A DNA stretch of 64,000 nt from Candidatus Tayloriibacteriota bacterium (GCA_943354385.1 CALRBR010000003.1:1926-65925); one strand, 5' to 3'; numbered from the stretch's first letter, positions 9,906-63,557 are shown. Notes: a model not told the origin generated them from the letters alone. Program-made: numbers and translations.

Positions 9906-10895
9906 ATGGCGAAAAAGAAACTCTCACAAAAGAATCCGGTAGTCATCTACCAAGCAAAATCTGGGGCTATCGAGCTTCGGGGCGATTTTGGCAAGGAGAC
10001 GATTTGGGCGACCCTTGATCAGATTGCTGAAGTTTTTGGGCGTGATAAATCTGTCATTTCTCGTCACTTTAAAAATATCTATGCTGAGGGGGAGCTGGAT
10101 GAAAAGGCAACTGTTGCAAAAAATGCAACAGTTCAAAAAGAGGGTACTCGTACAGTTGAGCGTATTATTGAATACTATAATCTCGACGCGATTATTTCTG
10201 TCGGGTATCGAGTTAATTCGAGTACCGCTACGAAATTTCGTCAGTGGGCCACCAAGACCCTCCGGAGTTACATCATCGACGGCTTTGCCATCAATCGCTC
10301 ACGTATCGCCAAAAATCACGAGCACTTTCTAAGTGTCGTTGAGGATCTCAAGAAATTATTACCGACCACTTCGGCGATTGATCCAAAAGATGCTATCGAG
10401 CTCATCTCATTGTTTGCCGACACCTGGCTGTCTCTCGATGCCTACGATCGAGAGCTGTTGCCAAAAGGGAAGCTTACTAAAAAGAAAGTCTCCATCACCC
10501 CAGAACAGATTGCAAAAGACTTGGCGACACTCCGGAAGACTCTGATCGAAAAAGGTGAGGCGACCGATGTGTTTGGTAATGAACGAAGCGCAGGGTCTGT
10601 GTCCGGAATCGTGGGAAATGTTCTCCAGGCGTTTGGAGGTAGCGATGTCTACCCAACGATTGAAGAAAAAGCGGCACACCTCTTGTATTTTATGGTTAAA
10701 AATCATCCGTTTACCGACGGCAACAAACGCTCGGGTGCTTTTGCATTTGTCTGGCTCTTAAAACAGGCACGGATTCTCGATATCCGTCGCCTGACCCCTT
10801 CGGCACTTACCGCGCTCACCGTATTGGTGGCAGAAAGTGATCCAAGTCACAAAGATAAGACGGTAAAATTGATTCTTAACATGATTGCAAAGTGA
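9906..10895 (+). CDS. RhuM-family N-terminal domain fused to Fic/Doc (death-on-curing-like) domain protein
   Basis: 329 aa. N-terminal IELRGDFGKETIWATLDQIAEVFGRDKSVISRHF..NSSTATKFRQWATKTL matches the virulence RhuM family. C-terminal HPFTDGNKRSGAFAF matches the Doc-type Fic motif HxFx(D/N)GNKR. Confidence 0.85.
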   Translation: MAKKKLSQKNPVVIYQAKSGAIELRGDFGKETIWATLDQIAEVFGRDKSVISRHFKNIYAEGELDEKATVAKNATVQKEGTRTVERIIEYYNLDAIISVGYRVNSSTATKFRQWATKTLRSYIIDGFAINRSRIAKNHEHFLSVVEDLKKLLPTTSAIDPKDAIELISLFADTWLSLDAYDRELLPKGKLTKKKVSITPEQIAKDLATLRKTLIEKGEATDVFGNERSAGSVSGIVGNVLQAFGGSDVYPTIEEKAAHLLYFMVKNHPFTDGNKRSGAFAFVWLLKQARILDIRRLTPSALTALTVLVAESDPSHKDKTVKLILNMIAK

Positions 10896-10937
10896 TAATG
10901 CTTTGAGGGGCTACCATACAGGACCCAAACCCCCTTC

Positions 10938-10976
10938 AACGGCTCAGTCCTTTTGGCTACAAAGGACTGAGCCGTT
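10938..10976. repeat. AACGGCT-stem palindromic hairpin (AACGGCTCAGTCCTTT-tggctac-AAAGGACTGAGCCGTT)
   Basis: 16-bp perfect stem 3' of the RhuM/Doc gene. Shares the AACGGCTCAGT...ACTGAGCCGTT base with the hairpin at 14472. Confidence 0.6.
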
Positions 10977-11125
10977 AAACCCATACAGCCCTTGTTTTGC
11001 AACGTTTTTCGCCCAGAGGTTATCCAATCGACAAAGAAAATGGTAGACTAAATCTGACTCTTTCGACTTTGGAAAAGATAGCTAGATTGCTCATAATTTA
11101 GAACAGTGAGTCGATGTGAAAAAAT

Positions 11126-11473
11126 ATGAAAGATATAAAAGATTTAACAAAAAGAATAATTGCTTTCCGCGATGCACGGGACTGGAAACAATTTCATAAT
11201 CCAAAAGATGTTGCTTTGTCTTTAGTACTAGAGGCTACTGAGGTGATGGAACATTTTCAATGGAAGAGTAAAGAAGAGATGGAAAAGTATATCGTGACCA
11301 ATAAAGTTGACATAGGTGAAGAACTTGCAGATGTTTTGTATTGGGTACTTTTGATGAGTACAGATCTTAAAATTGATGTTCTCGATGCGCTCGAGAAGAA
11401 GATTTCAAAAAACGAAGAAAAATATCCGGTCGAAAAAGCGAAGGGTAGGCATACAAAATATAATAAACTATAA
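11126..11473 (+). CDS. MazG-like nucleoside triphosphate pyrophosphohydrolase (small all-alpha MazG/NTP-PPase domain)
   Basis: 115 aa. EATEVMEHFQW..EELADVLYWVLLMS matches the EExxE/D metal-binding helices of the MazG family. The stop (11471-11473) abuts the ATG of the next gene (11475). Confidence 0.8.
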   Translation: MKDIKDLTKRIIAFRDARDWKQFHNPKDVALSLVLEATEVMEHFQWKSKEEMEKYIVTNKVDIGEELADVLYWVLLMSTDLKIDVLDALEKKISKNEEKYPVEKAKGRHTKYNKL

Positions 11474-11474
11474 A

Positions 11475-13499
11475 ATGTCAGACATAGCCACCTTTTCATT
11501 TAATGCAACTGGGGTAGAAAAAATACGTAATTATAAATATGGCAGTGATTGGCCGGTTGTTTACTTGATAGAAAATGGGAAAGAACTATATGTTGGAGAA
11601 ACAATCAGAGCGTATGGTAGAACAAAACAGCATTTAGAAAACGAAGCCAGAAAACATTTAAAGATGATTCATGTTATTTCTGACGACGAATTTAATAAAT
11701 CCGCAACTCTGGATACAGAATCTTCACTAATTGAGTATTTGGTCGCAGACGGTAAATATATTCTTCAGAATGGAAATGGAGGTTTACAAAACCATGATTA
11801 TTTTGACCGTGAAAGATACAGGGGTAAATTTGAGTTATTGTGGAAGAAATTGCAGGATTTAAATATTGCCAGTAAAGATTTACTACAGATTCGTAATAGT
11901 GATATTTTTAAATACTCACCGTACAAAACCCTCACGGATGATCAGTATTTAATTGCCTCAAAACTTCTAGAACAGTTTAAGGAGAATAAAATACAGACCT
12001 ATATTATTCATGGAGGTCCTGGTACTGGAAAAACAATTCTTGCCACATTTCTTATTAAGCAATTGATTGAAGCAGGTAAAAAGGATGTTGCTCTTGTTAT
12101 AGCAATGGTCTCTTTGCGAAAGACTTTAAAAAAAGTATTCAGAGATATTCCAGGTTTAAGTCCAAATATGGTGATTGGACCTAATGAGGTTGTAAACCAG
12201 AAATATGACATATTGATTGTTGATGAAACACATCGTTTACACCAGAGAAGAAATATTCCAAATTATGGAACTTTTGACAAAACCAATAGGGCTTTAGGTT
12301 TAGGAAATGAAGGCACAGAACTTGATTGGGTACTTAAATCCGCGAATCAAGTAGTACTTTTTTATGATGAAAAACAATCCGTTAGACCTTCAGATATATC
12401 AATTAACAAAGTTTTAGAATCAAAACCAATCAGTTTTGAACTTAAAACACAGATGCGAGTGAAAGGAGGGGAAAAGTATCTTGAATTTATAGATAAACTT
12501 CTTGAGAATGATGGAAATATTAAGGCTAATTTTTCAGATTATGATTTTAAGATTTGCGATGATCTTGCGGAGATGGTTTCGGATATAAAGAAACAAGATA
12601 AAATTCATTCTTTGTCTCGTTTGGTTGCTGGATATGCTTGGAAATGGATATCCAGAACAAATAATGGAATGCCAGATATTGTAATAGGGGATGTTAAGTT
12701 ATTTTGGAATAGCAAGATTCATGATTGGGTAAATTCCTCAAATGCTATAAATGAAGTGGGCTGTATACATACCATTCAAGGATACGATTTAAACTACGCG
12801 GGAGTAATTATAGGACCTGAAATGCTGTATGATCCAATCACAAAAAAGATTATTGTTGATAAGTCAAAATATCTAGATTCGAATGGTCACAATGGGGTGA
12901 ACGATCCAGAGGAACTTAAGAGGTATATAGTTAATATTTATAAAACACTACTTACACGGGGGATACTTGGAACATATATTTATATTGTTGATGAAAACCT
13001 GAGAAACTATTTCAAGGAAAAATTTGGACAAGAAACTAGTAAAAAAATGGATTTTAAAGAAAATTATAATGAAAGGAAAATAGTTTCTCCTTTCACAATG
13101 GAAATGATCAGAGTTCCTTTGGTTGGCTCTGCGCCGTGTGGAAATCCGCTTCTTGGCGAAGAAAACATTGAGGAATATATTGAAGTAGAAAAAAGCAAAA
13201 TTAAACCTGGCTATAACTATTTTATTCTTCGAGCTACTGGAGACTCGATGAACCTTGTTGGAATAAATGACGGGGATCTGGTGCTCTGTCGCCAGCAATT
13301 AAAGGCTGATACCGGCAACAGGGTTGTTGCTTTATTGGGTGATAATGTAACGATAAAAGAGTACGGTCCCCGCGAGGATGGAGTGCGTCTTCTTTTGCCC
13401 AAGAGCTCAAATAAGGATCATATGCCCATAACCCCAGGCGAAGGAGATAGTGTGCAAGGTATTGTACAGGAGGTGCTTAAAGGAGTAGACGAAGAATAA
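11475..13499 (+). CDS. GIY-YIG nuclease + DUF2075-type P-loop ATPase (SF1-helicase-related, Nhi-like) + C-terminal LexA/UmuD-like S24 peptidase domain fusion protein
   Basis: 674 aa from the ATG at 11475; the ORF-track N-terminal extension overlaps mazG. GIY-YIG (VVYLIENGKELYVGET..R..E..N). Walker A HGGPGTGKT, Walker B ILIVDETHRL. S24 hallmarks: candidate cleavage site SAPCG/NPLL, nucleophile Ser in GDSM, catalytic Lys in VTIKEY, plus a GINDGDLVL..VVA strand pattern as in LexA. Confidence 0.8.
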   Translation: MSDIATFSFNATGVEKIRNYKYGSDWPVVYLIENGKELYVGETIRAYGRTKQHLENEARKHLKMIHVISDDEFNKSATLDTESSLIEYLVADGKYILQNGNGGLQNHDYFDRERYRGKFELLWKKLQDLNIASKDLLQIRNSDIFKYSPYKTLTDDQYLIASKLLEQFKENKIQTYIIHGGPGTGKTILATFLIKQLIEAGKKDVALVIAMVSLRKTLKKVFRDIPGLSPNMVIGPNEVVNQKYDILIVDETHRLHQRRNIPNYGTFDKTNRALGLGNEGTELDWVLKSANQVVLFYDEKQSVRPSDISINKVLESKPISFELKTQMRVKGGEKYLEFIDKLLENDGNIKANFSDYDFKICDDLAEMVSDIKKQDKIHSLSRLVAGYAWKWISRTNNGMPDIVIGDVKLFWNSKIHDWVNSSNAINEVGCIHTIQGYDLNYAGVIIGPEMLYDPITKKIIVDKSKYLDSNGHNGVNDPEELKRYIVNIYKTLLTRGILGTYIYIVDENLRNYFKEKFGQETSKKMDFKENYNERKIVSPFTMEMIRVPLVGSAPCGNPLLGEENIEEYIEVEKSKIKPGYNYFILRATGDSMNLVGINDGDLVLCRQQLKADTGNRVVALLGDNVTIKEYGPREDGVRLLLPKSSNKDHMPITPGEGDSVQGIVQEVLKGVDEE

Positions 13500-22836: not shown

Positions 22837-24127
22837 AACTGTAACTAGAAATAACGCGATTAGCACTATTTATCTTATTGCGTTGTTGTTTGTTTTTTCT
22901 ATATTGTTACCGGCAGAAGCTCAGGGTACTAAATCAGTAGACGAACTCAGAGTATCTATTATAGAAACTCAAAATAAGCGAGCCGATCTCGAACGAGAAA
23001 TTGCCCGTTTTCAGGAACAAATAGACATTCTCGGTAAAAGTGCCAATACCCTTGCCAACACAATCAAGTCACTAGATTTATCGAGAAAAAAAATTGAAGC
23101 AACGATCTCCTTAACCGAGAATAAAATTAAATTAACAAATCTAGATATACAAAGATTGGGTGTCCAGATTGGTCTAAAGAGGGATGCGATTACCGAGGAT
23201 AAAGAAATCATAGCTAAAACATTTCGGGGTGTACATAAAAAGGAATCAACAAGTCTTATGGAGATACTTCTTTCTACAGAATCGATTTCTGGTGTTTCTG
23301 ATGATGTGTATTCCTTGCTTAAAGTACAGGAGGGGATTGCTCTGGTAGTAGAAAACCTGGAAAAAGCAAAGCAAGGACTCGAAACTAACAAAAAAGAGAC
23401 AGAGGGAAAGAAAAAGCATTTGGTAGTCCTGCGTATTGAGCTTAGAGACCAAGTACGAGTGCTTGAAGAAAGTAAAAAAGAAAAAAATAAACTTTTAGCA
23501 GAAACAAAAAATCAGGAGTCCATTTATAAAAGTCTCCTCGCGGAAAAAGAAGCTAAACACGATCAATTTGAGAGGGAATTGTTCCAATACGAATCTGAAC
23601 TTCGCATCGCAATCAATTTAAACGATATACCGTCTGTTGGTTTAAAAGTACTCAAATGGCCTTTAGATAAAGTATTTGTCACCCAATATTATGGAGATAC
23701 ACCCTTTTCTAAAGAATATAATGCATACAACGGCAAGGGACACAACGGCATAGACCTAAGAGCTTCTGTTGGTACAAAGGTAAAAAGTGCACTCGGTGGG
23801 GTAGTCAAAGGTACAGGAAATACAGATGCTGCGAAAAGTTGCTATTCTTATGGTAAATGGGTACTAATTGAACATGCAAATGGCCTTTCTACGGTGTATG
23901 GGCACCTATCTTATATTAGTGTACAGGCAGGTCAATTGGTGGCGACCGGTGATACTATCGGCTATAGCGGTAATACTGGGTATTCATTTGGACCCCATTT
24001 ACACTTAGGTGTGTTCGCTACCGAGGGTGTTCGAATTACCCGAAATCTCAAAAGTAAATACTGCAGTACAGTCGATATGCCGAGTGTCAGTATTAACGCA
24101 TACCTAAACCCACTTTCGTATCTTTAA
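22808..24127 (+). CDS. M23-family peptidase with N-terminal signal peptide and long coiled-coil region
   Basis: M23 LytM motifs HNGIDLRA..GTKV and GHLSYISVQAGQLVATGDTIGYSGNTG..GPHLHLGV. Signal peptide IYLIALLFVFSILLPAEAQG. The start is uncertain; the ATG at 22808 overlaps the gltX end. Confidence 0.8.
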   Translation: MLEIFFSKNKTVTRNNAISTIYLIALLFVFSILLPAEAQGTKSVDELRVSIIETQNKRADLEREIARFQEQIDILGKSANTLANTIKSLDLSRKKIEATISLTENKIKLTNLDIQRLGVQIGLKRDAITEDKEIIAKTFRGVHKKESTSLMEILLSTESISGVSDDVYSLLKVQEGIALVVENLEKAKQGLETNKKETEGKKKHLVVLRIELRDQVRVLEESKKEKNKLLAETKNQESIYKSLLAEKEAKHDQFERELFQYESELRIAINLNDIPSVGLKVLKWPLDKVFVTQYYGDTPFSKEYNAYNGKGHNGIDLRASVGTKVKSALGGVVKGTGNTDAAKSCYSYGKWVLIEHANGLSTVYGHLSYISVQAGQLVATGDTIGYSGNTGYSFGPHLHLGVFATEGVRITRNLKSKYCSTVDMPSVSINAYLNPLSYL

Positions 24128-24175
24128 TTCGTTTTTTAGATGCGATGAACATTGTTCACAGTTGCGATCTAGTAT

Positions 24176-24535
24176 TTGAGGTTTGAGTCTAGTATTATAG
24201 GTCATATGGTACACACACATAGTGTTCAAAAAAAGGGTTTTATCAAACTAATTATAATTATTGTTATTGGTTTAATTGTACTCGGTTATTTCGGGTTTGA
24301 TATAAAAAAAATTATTGATTCGCCGACGGTAAGCAAAAATTTGACCTATACCAAAGATTTAGTGGTAGGTGTATACCAAAAGTATCTTGCAAGACCAATT
24401 GACTATCTTTGGAACAATTTTTTTTTAAATCTTTTGTGGTCAGGATTTATAGATAACCTAGAGCGCATTAAAAATAATAAGCCCTCGGATATCTATAAGT
24501 ACGCACCCAGAGCTCTACCATTCCCAGTCACTTGA
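24176..24535 (+). CDS. Hypothetical small membrane protein
   Basis: 119 aa with one TM helix. No family recognised. Alternative start at 24206. Confidence 0.4.
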   Translation: MRFESSIIGHMVHTHSVQKKGFIKLIIIIVIGLIVLGYFGFDIKKIIDSPTVSKNLTYTKDLVVGVYQKYLARPIDYLWNNFFLNLLWSGFIDNLERIKNNKPSDIYKYAPRALPFPVT

Positions 24536-24800
24536 GTTCAGGAGACCATAACGCAGTCATGCAAAGTAACGAGAACACCGAGAGGGGCCTTTACTATCAC
24601 TTGGACGTAAGGAGTATATATGTCTAAAAGATATATTGTGCGACATCTTTACTTTGGGAACTATTAGGTGTTTAAAACCTCGGGCACTACCTTCCCTAGC
24701 AATACATTTGGATGCCCTAATCTAGGTTGGGACAAGTTTGTAATTTCCTTGTAAATCATATTTGCAATTATATCTCAGAACACATTACATACTTACAATA

Positions 24801-25531: not shown

Positions 25532-26437
25532 CTACTTTGAAATGCCTAATCTATCCGCGTAAATCTGCTCACATTTGTCACTACAAAAGGCTTCTCCTGA
25601 GCTTGCGAGGCAATTTTTACAGCTGATAAAGTGCCTGTGACACATTATGTAGGCACAGTTTACATAATTTTCAGAAGATGAGGCGCATCGTAAGCACTTA
25701 CCTACAATCGTGCGCTTTTCGTCTGGTGTGAATGTCATTCCTACACGATTATCAAAAACATAAAGCTTTCCCTGAAAATCATCGTTCTTATACTTTTCCA
25801 TATAACTCACAATACCGCCGTCGAGCTGGTATACATCTTTGAAACCTTGCTTTACGAGATAGCCAGAAGCCTTTTCACAACGGACGCCACCAGTACAGAC
25901 AGTTAAAACAGTTTTTTCTTTAAGAGGTTCAAGAGTCGGTAATACCTTAGGTAGATCACGAAAATTTTCAAGAGGAGGTAAAATAGAATCTTTAAAATGA
26001 CCGATCGCATGCTCATAATCATTTCTCATGTCTACTATCTCAAACTCCTTACCTTCCGCGAGCCATTTATGAAGCTCCTCAGGGGGCAGATGTTTACCCG
26101 TCACTTCTGTTGGGCTAAAATTTTGTTCGCCAAGACCAAGTGTAACTATTTCGTCTCTGACCTTAATTGAAAGCTTCGAGAAGGCCTTCCCTGTTCCCTC
26201 ACTTTTCTTTATATGAGTATCTGTAAATCGAGAGTCTCTTAAAAGATGCCTAATGTATAGATCAATATTTGAATCGGTACCCTCAAATGTCATGTTAATA
26301 CCCTCATGAGCAATAATACCTCGTCCAGTTAGACGAAGTTTGGCGCATATAGCCTTTTGAGTACCCATAAGCGCTATGGGATCTTCTACATATGTATATT
26401 TATAAAATAAAATAATTGTGTGGTCAGATTCAATCAT
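25532..26437 (-). CDS. trhO: tRNA uridine(34) hydroxylase (rhodanese-domain protein TrhO/YceA)
   Basis: 301 aa. UPF0176 N-terminus (ILFYKY..LMGTQ..AHEGIN). Rhodanese active-site loop CTGGVRCEKA. C-terminal Cys cluster. Confidence 0.85.
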   Translation of the reverse strand: MIESDHTIILFYKYTYVEDPIALMGTQKAICAKLRLTGRGIIAHEGINMTFEGTDSNIDLYIRHLLRDSRFTDTHIKKSEGTGKAFSKLSIKVRDEIVTLGLGEQNFSPTEVTGKHLPPEELHKWLAEGKEFEIVDMRNDYEHAIGHFKDSILPPLENFRDLPKVLPTLEPLKEKTVLTVCTGGVRCEKASGYLVKQGFKDVYQLDGGIVSYMEKYKNDDFQGKLYVFDNRVGMTFTPDEKRTIVGKCLRCASSSENYVNCAYIMCHRHFISCKNCLASSGEAFCSDKCEQIYADRLGISK

Positions 26438-26461: not shown

Positions 26462-27463
26462 TTATCTTTTCGGAATGGTTTCAAGAATCTTCTCTAGTCT
26501 TTTGAAAAGGGTGAGTCTGCTTGACTCAGTGATTTGTATTTCCCTATTTCTTACATCTAATAGTTTTGAAATCTCGTCATGAGGATTTTGTACCGAACTA
26601 AACGCTTCAAAAAGATTCTTTTTTAATACTATAAGGCTCGCATGCAAACTTAGTCTTATTACGCGAGGAGAAACACCCTCCATACAGTCATTTTTTGCAG
26701 TAGCTAAGGATTTCGAAGTAATGTCCTCAAAACCAGAAAGGTTCTTGCTAATCTTCTTTTGGTATATATCTATCGCATCCCTGGCACCGAGACTTACTGA
26801 GTCTGTTGACAGATCTGCCTTTTTTCTCGATTCATTTATTACCATCATAATTTCTGTTTGTAGTGCACTCAGCTGAGTGTACGATGTTGAAGTAGCTAGT
26901 GAATTTTTTAATCTGGTAAAATATGTCCCAATTTGTTCATCACTAAGATTTCTATTTCGCTCAACTTTCTTTTCTCGAAACAATTTTTCTGCCGAAATAG
27001 TTCTCGCCTGTTTTTCAAATAAATCTGCTATCTTTATCTTCGCATCACCTACTCTCTTAGTTAGGAGCTCTGAATAGGTTGAAAGTTTTGAACAAAATGT
27101 CTTTTTGTCATTACCCGGAAGAGTATTTATCGTGTCTTCAATTTTCACCAAATGATTAGTAGTAATATCTGGTATACTCGAGGTCGCAAAAGTATCATCA
27201 CGCGCTACAGACGATTCGAAGGAATTTACTTGTAAAACTGTTGCTATCAAAAACTCGAAATCTGAGCGAGCTTTCCTAGATAACAATGGCTCATCGATTT
27301 GTGGTATTGAAGAGGCTGTGGATATGACATTACTTAAAATCGATGGCAGAGCAACAACATCTTTTTTCGAATAAAAGATAATTAGAGACAAAATAATCAG
27401 GACAGCAAAACCAAATGTTATATGCGTGGTGGAAATTGAGCGTTTTATTTTTCTTGAAATCAT
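26462..27463 (-). CDS. Hypothetical membrane-anchored coiled-coil protein
   Basis: N-terminal TM helix then coiled-coil composition. Start chosen at MISRK (27463), because the track start at 27517 would overlap the upstream gene by 44 nt. Confidence 0.5.
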   Translation of the reverse strand: MISRKIKRSISTTHITFGFAVLIILSLIIFYSKKDVVALPSILSNVISTASSIPQIDEPLLSRKARSDFEFLIATVLQVNSFESSVARDDTFATSSIPDITTNHLVKIEDTINTLPGNDKKTFCSKLSTYSELLTKRVGDAKIKIADLFEKQARTISAEKLFREKKVERNRNLSDEQIGTYFTRLKNSLATSTSYTQLSALQTEIMMVINESRKKADLSTDSVSLGARDAIDIYQKKISKNLSGFEDITSKSLATAKNDCMEGVSPRVIRLSLHASLIVLKKNLFEAFSSVQNPHDEISKLLDVRNREIQITESSRLTLFKRLEKILETIPKR

Positions 27464-27473
27464 ACAAACAAGG

Positions 27474-27956
27474 TTAGAGAACAAAAACGAGGAATGTGAC
27501 CAGAAATGAAATCGCAAGTATGCAATTTATTACCATTCCTACAAAAGTACCAATGAGGCTACCCGTAGCAGCTTTTAAGGCCAAGTTTTGATTGCGATGC
27601 GCCATAAATTCTGCAATTAGGACTCCACCAAATAGTCCTAGGAGGCCACCAAGTGGAAAAAAGAGCACCGTACCGACAATAATGCCGACAAAACCATAGA
27701 TGATAGATTTTTTTGAGGCTCCTCCATACTTTGCACCAACAATGCCAGACAGTGTATCTACCAGCATCGAAAGAAGCACGATCCCGGCAAGTATAGCTAA
27801 TCCTGTTAGGGATATATGGACAAACCCATCAAACAAAGCAAATGCTGATGCAACAAAAAGCATATACCAGAGTGCTGGAAAGGCAGGGATGAATACCAAA
27901 AAGATTGCTGGCACAAGCAGTAGGGATGATATGATAAGAAAAATTGAGTAGTACAT
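27474..27956 (-). CDS. DUF456-like small membrane protein, continuous in frame with the upstream def reading frame
   Basis: About 160 aa from MYYSIFLI. 4 TM helices with GAKYGGASKK and GGLLGLFGGVLIAEF, typical of DUF456. No stop codon separates it from the def-derived frame. Confidence 0.55.
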   Translation of the reverse strand: MYYSIFLIISSLLLVPAIFLVFIPAFPALWYMLFVASAFALFDGFVHISLTGLAILAGIVLLSMLVDTLSGIVGAKYGGASKKSIIYGFVGIIVGTVLFFPLGGLLGLFGGVLIAEFMAHRNQNLALKAATGSLIGTFVGMVINCILAISFLVTFLVFVL

Positions 27957-28487
27957 ATTATTTTTTTTATGTTTAATAAAATAATTTCGACTGACTAATT
28001 TATGCATGTCAGAAATTTTGTCTAGAAACACCACCCCGTTTACATGATCATTTTCATGCTGGACCAACCACGCAAGCATTCCTTTTGCAGAAAGTTTAAA
28101 AGGCTTGCCATACATACCAAGGGCTTCAACCGTCACTGCCTGAGCAAGTTTTACTGGCCTAAAAAGCTTTCCGTAGGCAATACTCCCACACCCTTCGTAG
28201 CCCACAACCTGTTTCTTTAAATACGAACGAATTCGGGGGTTAATAAAGACATACAGGGGGCATGTATCGAGGTCTTTTCGAGCTTTGATTTTTCGAAGCT
28301 CGACTACAAAGATACGCGTGCTGCTTCCGATTTATGGCGCCGCCATACCGACGAGCCCCATAGATCTCAGAGAGTCAGTCAAATCTTTTGCTATTTTACT
28401 AGTTGATAGAGCCGAGGGCTTTTTAATCTCATTTGCAATATTCCTTATCACCGGCTCTTTTATTTGTATTGCTTTTTTAATAGCCAT
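27957..28487 (-). pseudogene. def: Peptide deformylase (def) with an in-frame TAA at the motif-1 Gln codon and a possible 1-nt deletion
   Basis: Minus-strand translation from the ATG at ~28487: MAIKKAIQIKEPVIRNIANEI..GLVGMAAP*IGSSTRIFVVEL (motif 1 G[IV]GLAAPQ[IV]G with TAA in place of Q, + strand tta at ~28332-28334). Continues ..CPLYVFINPRI..VVGYEGCGS (motif 2 EGCLS-like) ..QHENDH (motif 3). As printed, a G4 run at ~28257-28260 puts motif 1 and motif 2 in different frames. The ORF-track coordinates here disagree with my reading by 1 nt, so the frameshift is uncertain. Confidence 0.55.
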
Positions 28488-28744
28488 AAATAATTGATAG
28501 CAGAAATTCTTAGATTAATATTTAGATCGCAACTTAAACCAGACACGCGGTGATTTAAATACACTAATGGCACAGAGAACTAGCCCCAACAATCAACCAC
28601 TTTTATTATTGAATTATACCAAAAAATGATCAAAAATACTAGGAAATAAATAGTGTAATTTAATATTATCACATATAAATAAAAAAGTACGCTCACATCA
28701 ATTGTGCTACGTACTTGTGCGAGGCTAGGCCTCAACTGCTTTCG

Positions 28745-30118
28745 TCAGGTTCCCGTCGGACCGGGCAAAACCCTGAACTTGATCTCGGGATTCATCCCGG
28801 AGATCTTGATCAGGTTTGAGCCCGTCCGCTCGGCGAGGAACTTTGCGAATAGCTTCCCCAGGTTGCTCTGCTGGAGAGTCTCCCTGTCCTTGACGTAATC
28901 GTCATTGTCGGCCAAATCCTTTGCATGATGCGCGAGGAAGAGGTCGAGTGCCGACTGCGCCACTGCTATGTCTTCCTGGGTTTTGACGTCCACTGCGAGG
29001 GAGTATTCCCGAGTGATCACCTGACCACCCTTTGATTCCCGCGAGTCAAACTTTCGGAAGGTCCAACCAATCCCCCAACCACGGTCTTTGAGTCCCTTAT
29101 CCAGGGTGACCGTATTGATGTGCTTCACGAGCACGCGACCAGCCTTGAATGCCGGAGCCTTCGGTGCGGGAACGACTTGCGTTACTTTCGTGGGAGGCTG
29201 AACCTCGGCCGGCGGAGTCGCAGGCGCCTTCTGGGCCTTCACTTTCGCCGGTTGCTTGGGAGCAACAGGTGGAGCGGGGGCTAGCGCAGGTGCGAGCGTA
29301 GCGGGCTTCGGGGTCACGATCACTTTGGTCGGGACTGCCGACGTCAGTGTCCCAGTTGTCACGTTGGTGATGGTAAATGTCACGGGTGTGGGTTGCACAA
29401 CCGTCACATTCGTCACCACATTCTGAATGGTCACCGGCGGGGTTGCCGCAGGTGCCACATTCACAATGTTCGTGACAGCCGACGCCTGCACCGTAAAGGT
29501 CGCCGTTGAGGGCGCGACATTGACGATGTTGGTGATAGTGGGAACCTGCACTGTCGTGTAGTTCGTCACATTCACCACCGGCGGTTTCTGCGTGGAGATC
29601 TTCTCCAGCAGTTTCAGTTGGCCTTCGCCAACTTTCGCAAACCGTTCGAACACAGCGAGCTTGCTGTCGAGTTTTTCAGCCTTCAAGGCTTGCTCGCGTT
29701 GCTTCTCGATGTGTGCGCGGTCAGCCTTGGTCGTCGCCGCTTGGGCGTCGCTCAGGGCCATCTGGCGTTTGTGCACATCGCGGAGCTCTTGCTCGATCTG
29801 CTTCTGCACTGTCGTCTCGTGAAGAGTCGGCGGGACAGGAACGGGATTGGCAACAAGCACCGGAGCCGTGTCTTGCTTCTTGAGCGAAGCCAAGGAGTCA
29901 TGGCCGTTGGTCACGATGTAGGTGAACACGCAAGCCACCACAGCGAGAAACAGGACGGTCATGATAACCGCAAACATGTTCTTCTCTTTCTGCTTGGGGT
30001 TCGGGCTGACCGTGGGATCCCCGATGCCGAGCCAATGATTGTAGGCCCAGGCGCCGAGGACGGTGCAGAACACGACGAAGGCGGCCATCTGGAGGAGGAG
30101 TGACAGGGTGGAGTTCAT
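28745..30118 (-). CDS. Hypothetical membrane-anchored protein with coiled coil, VTNIVNVAP repeats and Pro/Ala-rich linker, encoded in a GC-rich (60-67%) island
   Basis: 457-aa ORF. Local GC is 60-67% against ~38% for the window. No recognisable family. Likely start at MFAVIMTV (~29977), giving a single TM helix. Confidence 0.6.
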   Translation of the reverse strand: MNSTLSLLLQMAAFVVFCTVLGAWAYNHWLGIGDPTVSPNPKQKEKNMFAVIMTVLFLAVVACVFTYIVTNGHDSLASLKKQDTAPVLVANPVPVPPTLHETTVQKQIEQELRDVHKRQMALSDAQAATTKADRAHIEKQREQALKAEKLDSKLAVFERFAKVGEGQLKLLEKISTQKPPVVNVTNYTTVQVPTITNIVNVAPSTATFTVQASAVTNIVNVAPAATPPVTIQNVVTNVTVVQPTPVTFTITNVTTGTLTSAVPTKVIVTPKPATLAPALAPAPPVAPKQPAKVKAQKAPATPPAEVQPPTKVTQVVPAPKAPAFKAGRVLVKHINTVTLDKGLKDRGWGIGWTFRKFDSRESKGGQVITREYSLAVDVKTQEDIAVAQSALDLFLAHHAKDLADNDDYVKDRETLQQSNLGKLFAKFLAERTGSNLIKISGMNPEIKFRVLPGPTGT

Positions 30119-30280: not shown

Positions 30281-30424
30281 TTATTCGCCCAAATATGCCT
30301 CAACCACGGCCTTTTCTGAGAGGGCTTTATCCGGAGTACCTTCTGCCGAAAGCTTGCCACTGTCCAGCACAAAAACATAGTCCGAAAGTTGACATATCAA
30401 GTCCTTATATGCTCCATAGTGTAA
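30281..30424 (-). pseudogene. Remnant of the C-terminus of a branched-chain amino acid ABC transporter ATP-binding protein (LivF-like tail)
   Basis: Minus-strand frame reads ..YGAYKDLICQLSDYVFVLDSGKLSAEGTPDKALSEKAVVEAYLGE*. This matches the LivF C-terminus (..YVLENG.IV..GT..EL..NE.V..AYLG). A stop precedes it and there is no start. Confidence 0.5.
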
Positions 30425-30679: not shown

Positions 30680-31096
30680 CTACTTCTTTAAATCCCCGAC
30701 AATATGATAAACTGCTTCGTAGGCACGGAGGGCAGAAGGTATTTCTGGCGACCGGCCAAAACGCGCTCTGAATCTTCTTTCAAAAACTTCGTAGCCTGGA
30801 GTTGTGGTAGATACTTGCGTAGAGATAAAAGGCACATCTTCAGCGATCAGATCTACTGGTCGTCCATCTACACCTCCCTTTCCGTTTATTTCATCTATTG
30901 CGAGGTGTACTGCCTTTAAATTCTCCTCACCAATTGAGCTTCCCACACCACTAAGTGCAGAAATAAAACCAACCTTCACCGGCTCGAGAGTGGATACATC
31001 ACGACGATTATTAGATATCGCGGAAAAAGTCACTATACCAAAAGCAATTACCATCGTCACCAATAGCATTTTTTCATATCGAGGACTCGTAGACAT
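30680..31096 (-). pseudogene. Truncated LivK-family periplasmic substrate-binding protein fragment
   Basis: 138 aa. Signal/TM helix then VKVGFISALSGVGSSIGEENLKAVHLAIDEINGKGGVDGRPVDLIAEDV, typical of Leu/Ile/Val-binding proteins. Then it degenerates and stops at about one third of normal length. Confidence 0.55.
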
Positions 31097-58995: not shown

Positions 58996-61038
58996 TCATT
59001 CTTTCACTATTTTTATAGAAAATTGTATATTTTCGGCTTGATAATTCAAACGTTCACATATTTTTGCTAAAAATGCGATTATTCCATTAGCACTCATATT
59101 ACCCTCTACGACTTCATTCGTGCGAAATTCTAGTGAGTGTCTAAGCGGTTTGTCTTTATTAAAATACCATTTGAATTCTGAACTATTCTGAATTTCAGTA
59201 AATTGTGTCGGAGAATATTCGTATAAGAAATTGCAAGTTTTAGTTAGTAAATCTCTCCAATTTTTTAATTCAATTCCTTTTTCATCTTCTTCAAAATATA
59301 AATGAGAGGGCTTGCTTCGACTAAAACTATCTTCACTGGTTAAATCAAATAACTGTTCTTCTGGAATTGGTTTTGAATATGTTGTTTTTGGGTATGGCCA
59401 AATGTCTTTAGCATTTTTGACTAGATCTTTTGCTCTTTCCACTATTTTTTCTTCATTCCAAATTGTTAAACCCTCAAGTTTATAATTTAATTTTAGTCTA
59501 CTAACTTGAAAATCAATCTGTTGCTTATCTTCAAAAGAACTGTTTGATAATTCAGTATTTTTTGCAGTTAAACTTAAATTTCCAAGAGTGTGTAGATATT
59601 TATTATGTATTTCTTGCCAATTTTCTCCTAGTTTATTTTTCCAATCCTTTGTTAAAGTTTGAGGCATTATATGTTCAACAGTTAATTCATCTAAACTGAC
59701 GGGATAAGCGGAGTGGAAATTTTCTAAAGATTCTAACAAGAAATTTCTATTTTTTGATTGAAGTCTATATATCTCTTTATTTATAAGTGCACTTTCAAAT
59801 TCTTCATTGTTTGGAAATCTCTGAGAGACTCTTTTTTCAAGTAGAATATAACTCAAAATATTAATATATTGCTCTTTCCACGACTCTTCTTTTTTAATAT
59901 CTCTAGCTAGGGAAATAAATAACTTATTCAATCCTTGCGTAGTATTGTCTACTAAAATCTTTCTAAAAGCATAACTTTCTATGATAAGAAGGATATCTTT
60001 TGTAGTTTCTTCCGTTATATTTTTAGAATCTAGCTCATTAAAAACATCCAACAAGTACGGATAACAAACTGTGAACTCTATTTTATTTATTTTTAACAGT
60101 TCTTTATTGATGGCACTATTGGGATGATTTTGAATTTGTGTTAACCAGCTATAAATTCCAGCAAAATATAATAAGTCTTTCAAGACACCTTCCTTGTTTT
60201 TATAGAAGTTATCTGTTGATAATTTTTTAAAAACAGAGTAAACATCATCTTTTTTAACCCAAATCCTTAGTTTAAAAATTAAATAATTTCTTACAAATTC
60301 CGCTATATCACCAGTTGATTTTTCAATTTCAACCCAGTATTTCTTATACATTTGCTCTTGTTGGAGCGGTTCTAAATCCATTAGGATATAATTGCGTATC
60401 AAATCACCAGCGGTAAGATCTACTCCAGTAGAATTTAAGCTTTCAAAAATCAATTGGGGATCGTCTTGCCCCCTCACCAAATCTATTAAAACTATTTTTA
60501 ATCTTCTAAATGCCTCGAATAGTTGTTGAGGAGTTAATGCTTCAGATGAAATTTTATCAAAAAAGAAATTATAGTTAGTAACTATATTAGAATTAGCATT
60601 TAAGTTATTGGAATTTTCAAACAGATTTTCAAAATTCTCCTTATCTTGTTTGTTTGGCTTTAATCTAATTCTTTTATCTTTTTCGGGAGAATATTTATTA
60701 ACAAGAAAATCTAATAACTGCTCTATTAAAATATTTTCTTCATTATTTTTTGTTTCTTTTGTCTTTAAAAACTTGTGTAAGGCGATCAACATGATCGAAA
60801 CCGTTGTTAGTCTTTGTTGCCCATCAATTATGGTATATTCCTCAAATCCGCTACCAATTGTAACAAGAGTACCCAAAAAATGATCACTCCTAGTATTGTT
60901 ATTCAGGTCTACTAAATCATCCCATAGCTTCTGACAATTTATTCTTGTCCAAGCATAATCTCTTTGGTATACAGGTATAGCAAAACTTTTCCCTGTGCCT
61001 TCTAAGAATTGATAAATTGGTAATTGTTGAACTTGCAT
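58996..61038 (-). CDS. GmrSD-like type IV (modification-dependent) restriction enzyme, DUF262 + DUF1524 architecture
   Basis: 680 aa. N-terminal DUF262/ParB-like NTPase with IPVYQRDYAW and DGQQRLTT motifs. C-terminal DUF1524 His-Me finger (ELTVEHIMPQT..W..LGNLSL). Confidence 0.8.
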   Translation of the reverse strand: MQVQQLPIYQFLEGTGKSFAIPVYQRDYAWTRINCQKLWDDLVDLNNNTRSDHFLGTLVTIGSGFEEYTIIDGQQRLTTVSIMLIALHKFLKTKETKNNEENILIEQLLDFLVNKYSPEKDKRIRLKPNKQDKENFENLFENSNNLNANSNIVTNYNFFFDKISSEALTPQQLFEAFRRLKIVLIDLVRGQDDPQLIFESLNSTGVDLTAGDLIRNYILMDLEPLQQEQMYKKYWVEIEKSTGDIAEFVRNYLIFKLRIWVKKDDVYSVFKKLSTDNFYKNKEGVLKDLLYFAGIYSWLTQIQNHPNSAINKELLKINKIEFTVCYPYLLDVFNELDSKNITEETTKDILLIIESYAFRKILVDNTTQGLNKLFISLARDIKKEESWKEQYINILSYILLEKRVSQRFPNNEEFESALINKEIYRLQSKNRNFLLESLENFHSAYPVSLDELTVEHIMPQTLTKDWKNKLGENWQEIHNKYLHTLGNLSLTAKNTELSNSSFEDKQQIDFQVSRLKLNYKLEGLTIWNEEKIVERAKDLVKNAKDIWPYPKTTYSKPIPEEQLFDLTSEDSFSRSKPSHLYFEEDEKGIELKNWRDLLTKTCNFLYEYSPTQFTEIQNSSEFKWYFNKDKPLRHSLEFRTNEVVEGNMSANGIIAFLAKICERLNYQAENIQFSIKIVKE

Positions 61039-61087
61039 AATAACTACATATTAGCATTTTTAGCCCTTAATATCAACGATTCTTAAT

Positions 61088-61837
61088 TTATTTTTGAAAC
61101 ACAAAAAGATGTTCGTGCATTATCAGTAAGAAGTTTGATTCCTTTGATTTTGTGACCCAAAAACCTGTTGCTTTGCAATTAAACTGTCTTTTGATTATGT
61201 CCTCTTTTAAAACAAAACCTACATCTAAAAACTTCTGCATTACCTTAAATGCAAGAGGTTGATACATTTTATTTCTGCGAGTGTCTCCCATTAAAATTGC
61301 ACAGTATTTTCCTTTCTTTAAAACTCGAAACAACTCTTTGGCAACTTTTTCTATTTCATCAACAAAAACGTCTATGTCGTGTATTCCCGAAAGATCTTCC
61401 TTAATCTTACCCTCACTGTATTTTATTATGTCTGCATAGGGAGGATGAGTTAAAACAAAATCAATTTCATTGTCTTTAATAAAGCTCATATCTCTCGCAT
61501 CACATTTCACGATCCGTTGTTTCGCTTTATTATCAACCTCAAATTCAAGAGATTTTTTAGTTCTCTCTAGTGCTTCTTCATTTACATCAATACAAGTAAT
61601 ATGGCGATTTAGTATCTTTGCTTCTATTGCCGTAGTACCTCCACCGATCATGCAATCGAGCAAGTGATCTTTTTCTTTTGAATAACGCAAAATAAGATTG
61701 CGGGCTACTTCGGGCGACCAGTTTCCGCGCCAGTCAGAAGTATGCGTTGCCCAATTACCACGACGAGGAAAAGCCCATACGGTTGTACACTCTAGTTCAA
61801 ATTCATCTGGGTTAAGTTTCATCTCTATTTCAGACAT
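61088..61837 (-). CDS. SAM-dependent DNA methyltransferase (amino-MTase; motif I before motif IV)
   Basis: 249 aa. AdoMet motif LLDCMIGGGTTAIEA. Catalytic (D/H)PPY-type motif DFVLTHPPYADII. Its start abuts the REase stop (61837/61838). Confidence 0.75.
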   Translation of the reverse strand: MSEIEMKLNPDEFELECTTVWAFPRRGNWATHTSDWRGNWSPEVARNLILRYSKEKDHLLDCMIGGGTTAIEAKILNRHITCIDVNEEALERTKKSLEFEVDNKAKQRIVKCDARDMSFIKDNEIDFVLTHPPYADIIKYSEGKIKEDLSGIHDIDVFVDEIEKVAKELFRVLKKGKYCAILMGDTRRNKMYQPLAFKVMQKFLDVGFVLKEDIIKRQFNCKATGFWVTKSKESNFLLIMHEHLFVFQK

Positions 61838-62437
61838 TTAGACGATTTTATATTTTTTAGATTTAACTAATTTAATAGAATCGTAACTATTTTTATCTGT
61901 AAACTTATATTGCCAAATTAAATACTCATCAATTCTTTTTTCAAAAAACAATAGGAAAACTTCTTTTTTTGTATGTTCTGTCCATTGTCTGTATGGATAA
62001 TATAATTGCCTAATTATTGTATTTTTTGTAGATGAATTTTTAGCTTCTATTAGAACAATTTTATTTTTTCCTTCATAACCAGCATCAACTTCTGTCTGAA
62101 CCCCCTTCGTTTCAATTGTGGTATTACCAATTTTATAACTAAACTCCGGTGTATATTTTCTCCCTCTGATTGCTAGCACAAGCGAAGGATCGTCCATGAA
62201 TGTTCTAATGAGACTTGAAGCATAGGCAAAATCAAGATGTTGCATCTCAGAATTTCCAATTTTTGCTGTGTCTAAATCAAAATCGAGCTTGGTATTATAA
62301 ATTTCAGCTTCACTTTTAATTTCAGGAATATCAACATATCCCTCGGCTTTTACAAGAACATATTGACCATTTTTTACTGGCAATAAGACTAGCCCATTTT
62401 CTTTCATTATTACTGGAACACTTTCTCTTGTATCCAT
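61838..62437 (-). CDS. Putative type II restriction endonuclease (PD-(D/E)xK)
   Basis: 199 aa. Candidate catalytic core ..TEVDAGYEGKNKIVLIEAKN.. (D...E-A-K). Sandwiched between two MTase genes. Confidence 0.5.
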   Translation of the reverse strand: MDTRESVPVIMKENGLVLLPVKNGQYVLVKAEGYVDIPEIKSEAEIYNTKLDFDLDTAKIGNSEMQHLDFAYASSLIRTFMDDPSLVLAIRGRKYTPEFSYKIGNTTIETKGVQTEVDAGYEGKNKIVLIEAKNSSTKNTIIRQLYYPYRQWTEHTKKEVFLLFFEKRIDEYLIWQYKFTDKNSYDSIKLVKSKKYKIV

Positions 62438-62600
62438 CTTGCATAAAATCCGAACTTCTTTTTCTGTTGTACTTTTAAAATCTTGAACTGATTTTTTTAT
62501 ATCTTTTGCAGATAAATAAAATGGTGATTTAGAAAAATTATGTTCTAAAATTTTGTTATCCTTAAATATTTTTGTCCAAGAATTATTGTTAGCCTTAAAT

Positions 62601-63557
62601 TTAATAATTAGTTACCAATACCTCTGTAATTTTTCCTCTTTTAGAAGCGTCGGAGTTAATGGCACGACCCGCTTGTACTTTTGTAATACGGACACCTTTA
62701 ATCTTGGAATAAATTTTGTTAATAAATGCAGTGTCGGAATTTGAAAGCATAACAAAACAACCTCGTTTGTGTAGTTCTACAAATGTATCTCTTAGTTCGG
62801 TTTGCTCTTTATCTAAAAATGCCTCGCTGGTGTATGAAGTAAATGACGCGGTTTTACTTACTGGATAATATGGTGGATCAAAATAAACAAAATCTCCTTT
62901 CTTTGCTTTTTTAAGCACTTCTCTGTAATCCTGTTTTATTATCTCAACATTTTTCAATGCTTTTGATGCTTTTCTAAGATTATTTTCATCACAAATAAGA
63001 GGGTTTGTATATTTACCAAACGGAACATTAAACCCACCTTTGCTGTTCACGCGATACATACCATTGAAACAAGTTCTGTTCAGATAGATAAAACGAGAGG
63101 CAGTATTTAAATCAGAAAGCTTTTCTGGATTTTGTGCCCGTATTTTTAGAAAATATTCCTTGTCTAGTTTATGTTTTTTGAGTGATTTTATTAGACTTTC
63201 AACATCACTTTTAATTACATTGTAAGTGATAACAAGTTCATTGTTCAAATCAGAAAGATAAGCTGTTTCAGGAAGAAGATCAAAGAATACTGCACCTCCG
63301 CCGACAAATGGTTCAAAATATTTTCCGCTTTGTGGATCAAATTTTTCTGGTGGATAAAGATTCATTAAACGAAATTGTGCGAGGAGTTGTCTTTTTCCAC
63401 CAACCCACTTAACAAAAGGTTTTGGTTTTTCTGCAATAATGCGGGAAGCGTCTTCAATGAGTTTTGTTTTATCTGCAAGCGAAAAAACCCTGTAAGCATA
63501 AATCGAATTTATGTTGAAGGTTTCTTTAATTTCTAAAATTGCTTGGTCTTTTGTCAT
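62601..63557 (-). CDS. Dam-family (D12 class, alpha) N6-adenine DNA methyltransferase
   Basis: 318 aa. KWVGGKRQLL (Dam motif). Motif I YFEPFVGGGAVFF. Motif IV VYFDPPYYP. Confidence 0.85.
   Translation of the reverse strand: MTKDQAILEIKETFNINSIYAYRVFSLADKTKLIEDASRIIAEKPKPFVKWVGGKRQLLAQFRLMNLYPPEKFDPQSGKYFEPFVGGGAVFFDLLPETAYLSDLNNELVITYNVIKSDVESLIKSLKKHKLDKEYFLKIRAQNPEKLSDLNTASRFIYLNRTCFNGMYRVNSKGGFNVPFGKYTNPLICDENNLRKASKALKNVEIIKQDYREVLKKAKKGDFVYFDPPYYPVSKTASFTSYTSEAFLDKEQTELRDTFVELHKRGCFVMLSNSDTAFINKIYSKIKGVRITKVQAGRAINSDASKRGKITEVLVTNY

Follow-up and report, generated by a model that had tools for sequence, protein, structure and literature searches.

The peptide deformylase gene (def) on the minus strand of the window, a term used here for the whole 64,000-nucleotide stretch of DNA analysed, is very probably an ordinary decaying pseudogene in an uncultured bacterium of the Patescibacteria (CPR) type. 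Its stop is fixed in the species, constraint on the remaining sequence is relaxed, genes upstream of it have been deleted, and the ancestral layout of the locus comprised two separate genes; a def pseudogene of this sort is an ordinary, already-known kind of feature. Read from the ATG at 28487–28485 to the stop at 27474, the frame comprises 338 codons and holds one internal stop only, the TAA of codon 52 (28334–28332, minus strand), which occupies the position of the motif-1 Gln of Def ('GLVGMAAP*IGSSTRIF', or in the longer reading 'MGLVGMAAP*IGSSTRIFVVEL'). A sequence-only reading of the window had placed the TAA at exactly this residue of the frame from 28487, correctly. The features of the gene are as follows.

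27957–28487, minus strand: def relic (peptide deformylase pseudogene; PF01327), 73–77% identical to the orthologues of the same synteny
28485–28502, minus strand: TGCTATCAA-TTATTT-ATG, a promoter-like box immediately ahead of the def ATG; a sequence pattern only
28332–28334, minus strand: premature TAA in place of the motif-1 Gln (codon 52); a lesion in all haplotypes
28256–28260: G5 run on the plus strand (C5 on the coding strand); no frameshift
28182–28196, minus strand: motif 2, EGCGS, intact in the window haplotype (H1), ERCGS (G99R) in H2, H3 and H4
28044–28061, minus strand: motif 3, QHENDH (HExxH metal site), intact

With Gln substituted for the stop, the product matches the Pfam Pep_deformylase profile (PF01327) over its full length, at aa 4–162 (E = 1e-31). 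Compared with bacterial Def/PDF (PF01327, TIGR00079; 176–180 aa in the Patescibacteria/CPR form), the relic shares the length and the full-length family match and keeps the GMAAP-[Q] context of motif 1, EGCGS in motif 2 (in the window haplotype), and QHENDH, with its HExxH, in motif 3. It differs in having a stop for the Gln codon, seven near-invariant residues replaced and the original stop of the 176-codon ancestral gene (TAA, 27960–27958) now out of frame in the window; in scoring under the curated cut-offs of the NCBIfam deformylase models (106 and 93 bits, against 125 and 104); and, in most strains, in G99R. The uninterrupted frame through G-x-G-x-AA-x-Q, with its catalytic Gln, is absent from all 13 records spanning the site. 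The copy is a relic and no working member of the Def family, and the TAA of codon 52 is an inactivating lesion common to all haplotypes.

The intact motifs 2 and 3 reported from the sequence were confirmed for the window haplotype; G99R (EGC to ERC) is carried by H2, H3 and H4, the commonest haplotype among them. The Cys of motif 2, EGCxS, is a metal ligand. Among single-PDF genomes, conservation of motif II exceeds 95% (PMC12690207).

Records of the locus were obtained by exact-protein look-ups in NCBI MAGs, ENA assemblies and Logan assemblies (L001–L006 and L011–L017). All 13 public records that span codon 52, including L001–L006, L011–L015 and L017, carry TAA there; they are partially independent, and some may share source reads. 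Four haplotypes are represented: H1 (the window and L001–L004), H2 (L005 and L006), H3 (L011–L014 and L017; the commonest) and H4, which rests on one short contig (L015) that may be a low-coverage assembly. The same contig (from ERZ27280264) carries a nonsense change, E111*, near the end of the rhodanese gene at window position 26107, as well as private changes in the def relic.

An error of sequencing or assembly as the source of the TAA or of the fusion with the downstream DUF456 gene, described below, is vanishingly improbable. The fusion hangs on the length of an A8 homopolymer, and homopolymers are error-prone; against an error, the A8 state was found in seven records (the window and L001–L006), and each alternative indel state is linked to its own set of SNPs. 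For the TAA itself, the option of a sequencing error raised by the sequence-only reading is excluded, because the same codon recurs in 13 records from NCBI, ENA and Logan, among them strains of four haplotypes with differences elsewhere. The TAA is genuine, and the species is fixed for it. A second supposed lesion, a G4 run at 28257–28260 that would split motifs 1 and 2 between frames, proved to be a miscount: the plus strand reads 'cataca ggggg catg', which gives G5 at 28256–28260, the 282 nt (94 codons) from ATG 28487 to GTG 28205 lie in one frame, and apart from the TAA the frame is continuous. Ten-base display blocks, splitting the run as 'gggg g', may be the source of the miscount.

Intact orthologues of 176 aa, at 69–78% identity, were recovered in a search with a Def-only profile (P0022, P0027, P0032, P0045, P0048, P0054 and P0066). 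The named hits among the farther Defs all belong to the Patescibacteria/CPR (Moranbacteria, Paceibacteria, Sungbacteria, 'Patescibacteria group'), and the placement of the organism is based on them. Other distant Defs (P0002, P0003 and P0005) lie at loci with neither a DUF456 neighbour nor synteny. The first protein search, with the whole fused sequence, returned five hits only and missed the 70–78% orthologues, probably with hydrophobic DUF456 words dominating the choice of candidates, and its outcome is no argument for the absence of the fusion elsewhere. A scan of representative-genome contigs, a set that lacks the window species, yielded distant Defs only (a Rubricoccaceae MAG and a Bacilli MAG).

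Common to the window and the related loci L018, L019, L020, L021 and L022 is the gene order def (176 aa), DUF456 (160 aa), an unknown protein of about 333 aa, a UPF0176/rhodanese protein and a small SLT-like protein. Where related def genes were to be checked for CAA at the stop codon, they carry CAA (L018, L021) or CAG (L020, L022) and no stop, in the context CCA CAA ATC or CCG CAG AT.; the closest relative has CCA CAA ATC GG for the CCA TAA ATC GG of the window, a single C-to-T transition. The 333-aa protein encoded in the window (26462–27463, minus strand; no Pfam match) is 26–27% identical to its syntenic orthologues, against 80–87% for its neighbours, so that its gene evolves very fast; with 8 differences in 1002 nt, 5 being non-synonymous, it is also the intact gene that varies most between strains.

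The distal part of the 338-codon frame, and the point at which it is entered, are given by two further features.

27474–27956, minus strand: DUF456 gene, 160 aa (MYYSIFL...), with its own ATG at 27956–27954; PF04306
27961–27968, minus strand: A8 run, one C lost relative to AAA CCA AAA TAA in relatives and AAA CAA AAA TAA in H4

The stop-free continuation of the frame into DUF456 was borne out for the window: Pfam PF04306 is matched at aa 199–334 of the Q-substituted frame (E = 2e-26; profile positions 1–137 of 139). In 15 contigs the downstream protein is called at 160 aa (P0006); all haplotypes encode it with one and the same amino-acid sequence, and its orthologues, 160 aa long and 81–84% identical, start 1 nt after the def stop (L018, L020 and L022). 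With a full-length profile match, a start of its own and the length of its orthologues, DUF456 is a separate, intact gene. It resembles the DUF456 family (PF04306, for example Bacillus subtilis YqgC) in matching the profile over its whole length, and in this clade it is ancestrally unfused, a separate gene 1 nt after the def stop. In B. subtilis, YqgC, of the yqgC-sodA operon, has been linked to manganese efflux (bioRxiv 10.1101/2024.02.14.580342).

The junction in all relatives reads 'CAT AAA CCA AAA TAA T ATG TAC TAC', comprising the def stop, one base and the DUF456 start. The two genes are split by TAA plus 1 nt at four related loci, and the short contig L021 has the same stop-T-ATG junction. 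H4 keeps the ancestral frame ('CAT AAA CAA AAA TAA T ATG', def ending in …KHKQK). In H1 and H2 the junction is one base shorter than in H4 ('CAT AAA AAA AAT AAT ATG'); this one-base loss at the A8 run takes the old def stop out of frame, so that the def frame enters DUF456. H3 has lost two more bases (three in total, part of the stop included), and its def frame continues, but not in the frame of DUF456.

The natural-looking and unusual fusion of the sequence-only reading is thus real as an open frame of the window haplotype, yet the architecture is not conserved: H3 and H4 have it out of frame, and relatives have two separate genes. The fusion of Def with DUF456 arose secondarily, through the loss of 1 nt immediately ahead of the ancestral stop of def. 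The public 243-aa protein 'Pep_deformylase + DUF456' (P0001/P0007; PF01327 + PF04306), which starts at the internal GTG at 28205, is a gene-calling artefact, because the dead def frame is in frame with DUF456 only through a haplotype-specific deletion.

Relaxed constraint on the relic is seen both between and within species. Aligned with 120 related Defs, the relic carries seven replacements at columns that are at least 95% conserved (G10K, M40L, T67I, S90L, R114L, R140W and I142V), with the stop in addition; at the same columns the seven close orthologues have none, and the other 113 sequences average 0.45, with no more than 2 in any. In a Tajima-type relative-rate test with P0109 as outgroup, 18–23 changes fall on the relic lineage against 3–7 per orthologue (p = 0.0015–0.04), orthologue against orthologue is balanced, and farther outgroups give the same direction with less power. 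By both measures (7 versus 0 replacements, and relative rate), the relic lacks the purifying selection on family-wide conserved residues that marks working members. These tests were used in place of between-species dN/dS, which is uninformative with saturated synonymous sites (pS 0.43–0.79).

Between strains, the relic differs by 7–12 substitutions per 531 nt (1.3–2.3%), compared with about 0.3% in the rest of the ~8.5-kb locus and 0–1 substitutions in DUF456, so that its SNP density is 4–7 times that of neighbouring genes. This density, and not the ratio of non-synonymous to synonymous changes, is the informative within-species measure: synonymous changes in the relic are not rarer than non-synonymous ones (5 versus 7), but the counts are too small and the intact neighbours stand at about 1:1. 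Mutations of relaxed selection, named beforehand, alongside a second intact def, as the mark of a plain pseudogene, were thus found in conserved sites, SNP density and relative rate alike. The earlier suggestion of a recent def pseudogene holds as to the pseudogene and not as to its age: with seven near-invariant replacements and indels that differ between strains, the decay is not especially recent.

A gene that is still functional would need its TAA to be read through, by a programmed mechanism or by near-cognate suppression with tRNA-Gln, restoring the catalytic Gln and giving enough full-length Def, which in the window haplotype would be a Def–DUF456 product. Near-cognate readthrough of UAA can insert Gln, and the stop lies exactly at the Gln codon, one transition from CAA. 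In the window haplotype motifs 2 and 3 have stayed intact, the promoter-like box is kept before the def ATG, no second def lies within the 64-kb window, and a hairpin is predicted about 30 nt downstream of the stop in H1 (z = -2.0). The likeness to programmed readthrough or reassignment consists in an in-frame stop inside a conserved gene, where a near-cognate tRNA restores the native residue; conservation in relatives, a genome-wide pattern, a shared structure and downstream purifying selection, which would complete it, are all lacking here. The hairpin is missing from relatives and from H3 (z = +0.2), which is the commonest haplotype and shares the TAA, and an Rfam scan of the window found no RNA element close to def. 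In orthologues the codon is a sense codon (CAA/CAG), so the position is not a conserved recoding site.

TAA is also the normal terminator and the commonest true stop in the window; because it ends 32 of the 53 window ORFs that reach 100 aa, against 12 for TAG and 9 for TGA, it is not reassigned. A tRNA scan of the window detected Ala-TGC, Leu-TAG and Lys-CTT only, none of them a suppressor. Beyond the stop the sequence is under relaxed constraint, with the seven near-invariant replacements, G99R in most haplotypes and variable 3′ frames. Programmed readthrough at an essential gene, another option of the sequence-only reading, is accordingly not supported, given the sense codon in orthologues, the lack of a structure shared between haplotypes and the unconstrained sequence after the stop, and a functional gene of this kind is very unlikely.

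The pseudogene lies in a neighbourhood that has itself decayed. Three features upstream of def record this.

28745–30118, minus strand: 457-aa protein with no Pfam match, orthologue of unk432
30284–30403, minus strand: ABC-transporter ATPase remnant, last 40 codons (244 aa in relatives), found by tblastn; a deletion scar upstream of def
30680–31096, minus strand: Peripla_BP_6 binding-protein fragment, 138 aa (353–379 aa in relatives)

Ahead of def, L018 and L020 carry unk432, a 379-aa periplasmic binding protein, TrmB, another binding protein (358 aa) and a 240-aa ABC ATPase. The 379-aa binding protein, TrmB, the 358-aa binding protein and the 240-aa ATPase have no counterpart in the window, four genes being deleted and a fifth truncated. 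The ATPase remnant stems from a different ABC ATPase gene, and its tblastn match (85% identity) covers residues 83–122 of the visible 122-residue C-terminal piece only. The Liv-type transporter cluster is deleted in the window species, and the closest relative, L021, is intermediate, with the orthologue of the 457-aa protein, a terminator, the 240-aa ATPase and then def. Because neighbouring transporter genes have also been lost, the inactivation of def is one step in a series of losses at the locus. The def gene starts 5 nt after the ATPase stop in L018, L021 and L022 (the spacer is 74 nt in L020), and because it follows the last transporter gene so closely, it is probably co-transcribed with that gene in those relatives.

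The gene for the 457-aa protein is GC-rich, its 2-kb interval having about 51% GC against 37–43% in the flanking intervals, and the protein has an N-terminal TM helix, 'TNIVNVAP'-type repeats and a Pro/Ala/Lys-rich stretch. Because orthologues are present in related species (56–64% identity over the best-aligned parts), the gene is not a recent foreign insert. Right after its stop, at 28672–28744 on the minus strand, is a non-coding element of about 75 nt comprising two hairpins and a T-run, terminator-like in form. The element is 92–94% identical at the same position in L018, L020 and L021, with the synonymous sites of the flanking genes saturated, and is conserved beyond the need of a plain terminator.

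The box before def resembles, without the final T, a TGnTAnnnT-N6-9-ATG arrangement that precedes about 17 window genes. A scan for sigma-70 promoters and terminators around def gave nothing above the shuffled expectation. In the genes with the full arrangement, an extended -10-like box, TGnTAnnnT (often TGCTATACT), ends 6–9 nt before the ATG; start codons preceded by it include those at 2889, 7577, 9906, 14560, 17181, 21478, 26437, 34535, 35408, 37953, 38173, 53403, 55561, 61038 and 63557. An SD-like purine run precedes 6 of the 33 window genes that start with ATG. The spacing of 6–9 nt between box and ATG, together with the scarcity of SD-like runs, suggests that the mRNAs of this organism are mostly leaderless.

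Elsewhere in the window, the cumulative GC skew peaks at about 24000–24800, where gene orientation turns from plus (left) to minus (right), convergent as at a replication terminus. At 9906–13499, where GC dips to 35%, are a RhuM+Fic protein and a Schlafen-type helicase fused to an S24 peptidase, and a low-GC block (31–36%) at 58996–63557 encodes a GmrSD endonuclease, an N6/N4 methylase and a Dam-type (D12) methylase; the two are possible defence or mobile islands.

Several points weigh against a def pseudogene: the window haplotype still has motifs 2 and 3 intact; within the species, synonymous changes in the relic are no rarer than non-synonymous ones, on counts too small to discriminate; some of the 13 records may share source reads, and H4 rests on a single short contig; the promoter-like box still stands before the def ATG, although it would serve DUF456 too; and Def is normally essential, with no other def or fmt in the 64-kb window. 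An HMM search over six-frame fragments of the window found no second def, and a search of the same 64 kb for fmt, made with an E. coli Fmt probe, was a weak negative. For a pseudogenized def, a surviving paralogue elsewhere in the genome is the likeliest situation, and a probable one. It is the simpler account because multiple PDFs occur in 48% of bacterial species (PMC12690207), and the survey of PDF duplication and loss that gives this figure (Mol Biol Evol 2025, PMC12690207) provides context for the loss of one def copy.

Rather unlikely, by comparison, is that the relic is the only def of the organism, the cycle of formylation and deformylation having been given up with fmt lost or inactive/silent, a course known from certain strongly reduced symbionts. 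Once fmt is inactive, def is dispensable. The empty searches of the window and the gene loss ongoing at the def locus are in keeping with such an abandonment, as is, weakly, the absence, among the 120 best related Def hits, of any with the source pattern that a second copy from the window species should show. Losses of this kind are on record, 31 of 5,042 reference genomes having no PDF (29 of those 31 being endosymbionts) and 73 having no fmt, mostly obligate endosymbionts (PMC12690207). On the other side are the frequency of multiple PDFs given above, the scope of the searches, which is about 64 kb of the genome, and the close relatives, which hold def under strong constraint, implying that formylation was in use recently.

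On the pseudogene reading, in which deformylase activity would be supplied by another def or no longer needed, the history is as follows. The ancestral layout was a def of 176 codons, TAA, one base and the ATG of a separate DUF456 gene of 160 codons. Transporter genes upstream of def were deleted stepwise in the lineage, followed by the nonsense mutation in def and then by drift and indels. A C-to-T change converted the motif-1 Gln codon CAA to TAA, ending translation after 51 residues, and the remainder of def drifted, acquiring near-invariant replacements, G99R in most strains and three indel states in the last codons. In the window haplotype, loss of one C produced the A8 run, moved the old stop out of frame and placed the dead def in the frame of DUF456. 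If the promoter-like box is active, it would give a transcript of which the first 51 codons are translated, followed by release; initiation at the DUF456 ATG, which lies behind an A-rich stretch lacking an SD, would come next, and DUF456 is probably still expressed from this start.

The main value of these results is one of correction, in that a public 243-aa protein with the look of a novel domain fusion stems from a gene-calling artefact in a pseudogene tail, and the in-frame TAA in def is no sign of recoding. The locus neatly illustrates how a bacterium with a reduced genome loses genes step by step. Owing to the near universality and essentiality of peptide deformylase in bacteria, its wider interest hinges on whether any other def is absent genome-wide. 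If the species does have no working deformylase, the locus would represent a natural, recent and datable loss of a near-universal pathway and antibiotic target in a free-living or episymbiotic species of Patescibacteria, outside the classic insect endosymbionts and with sister species that still hold def under strong constraint.
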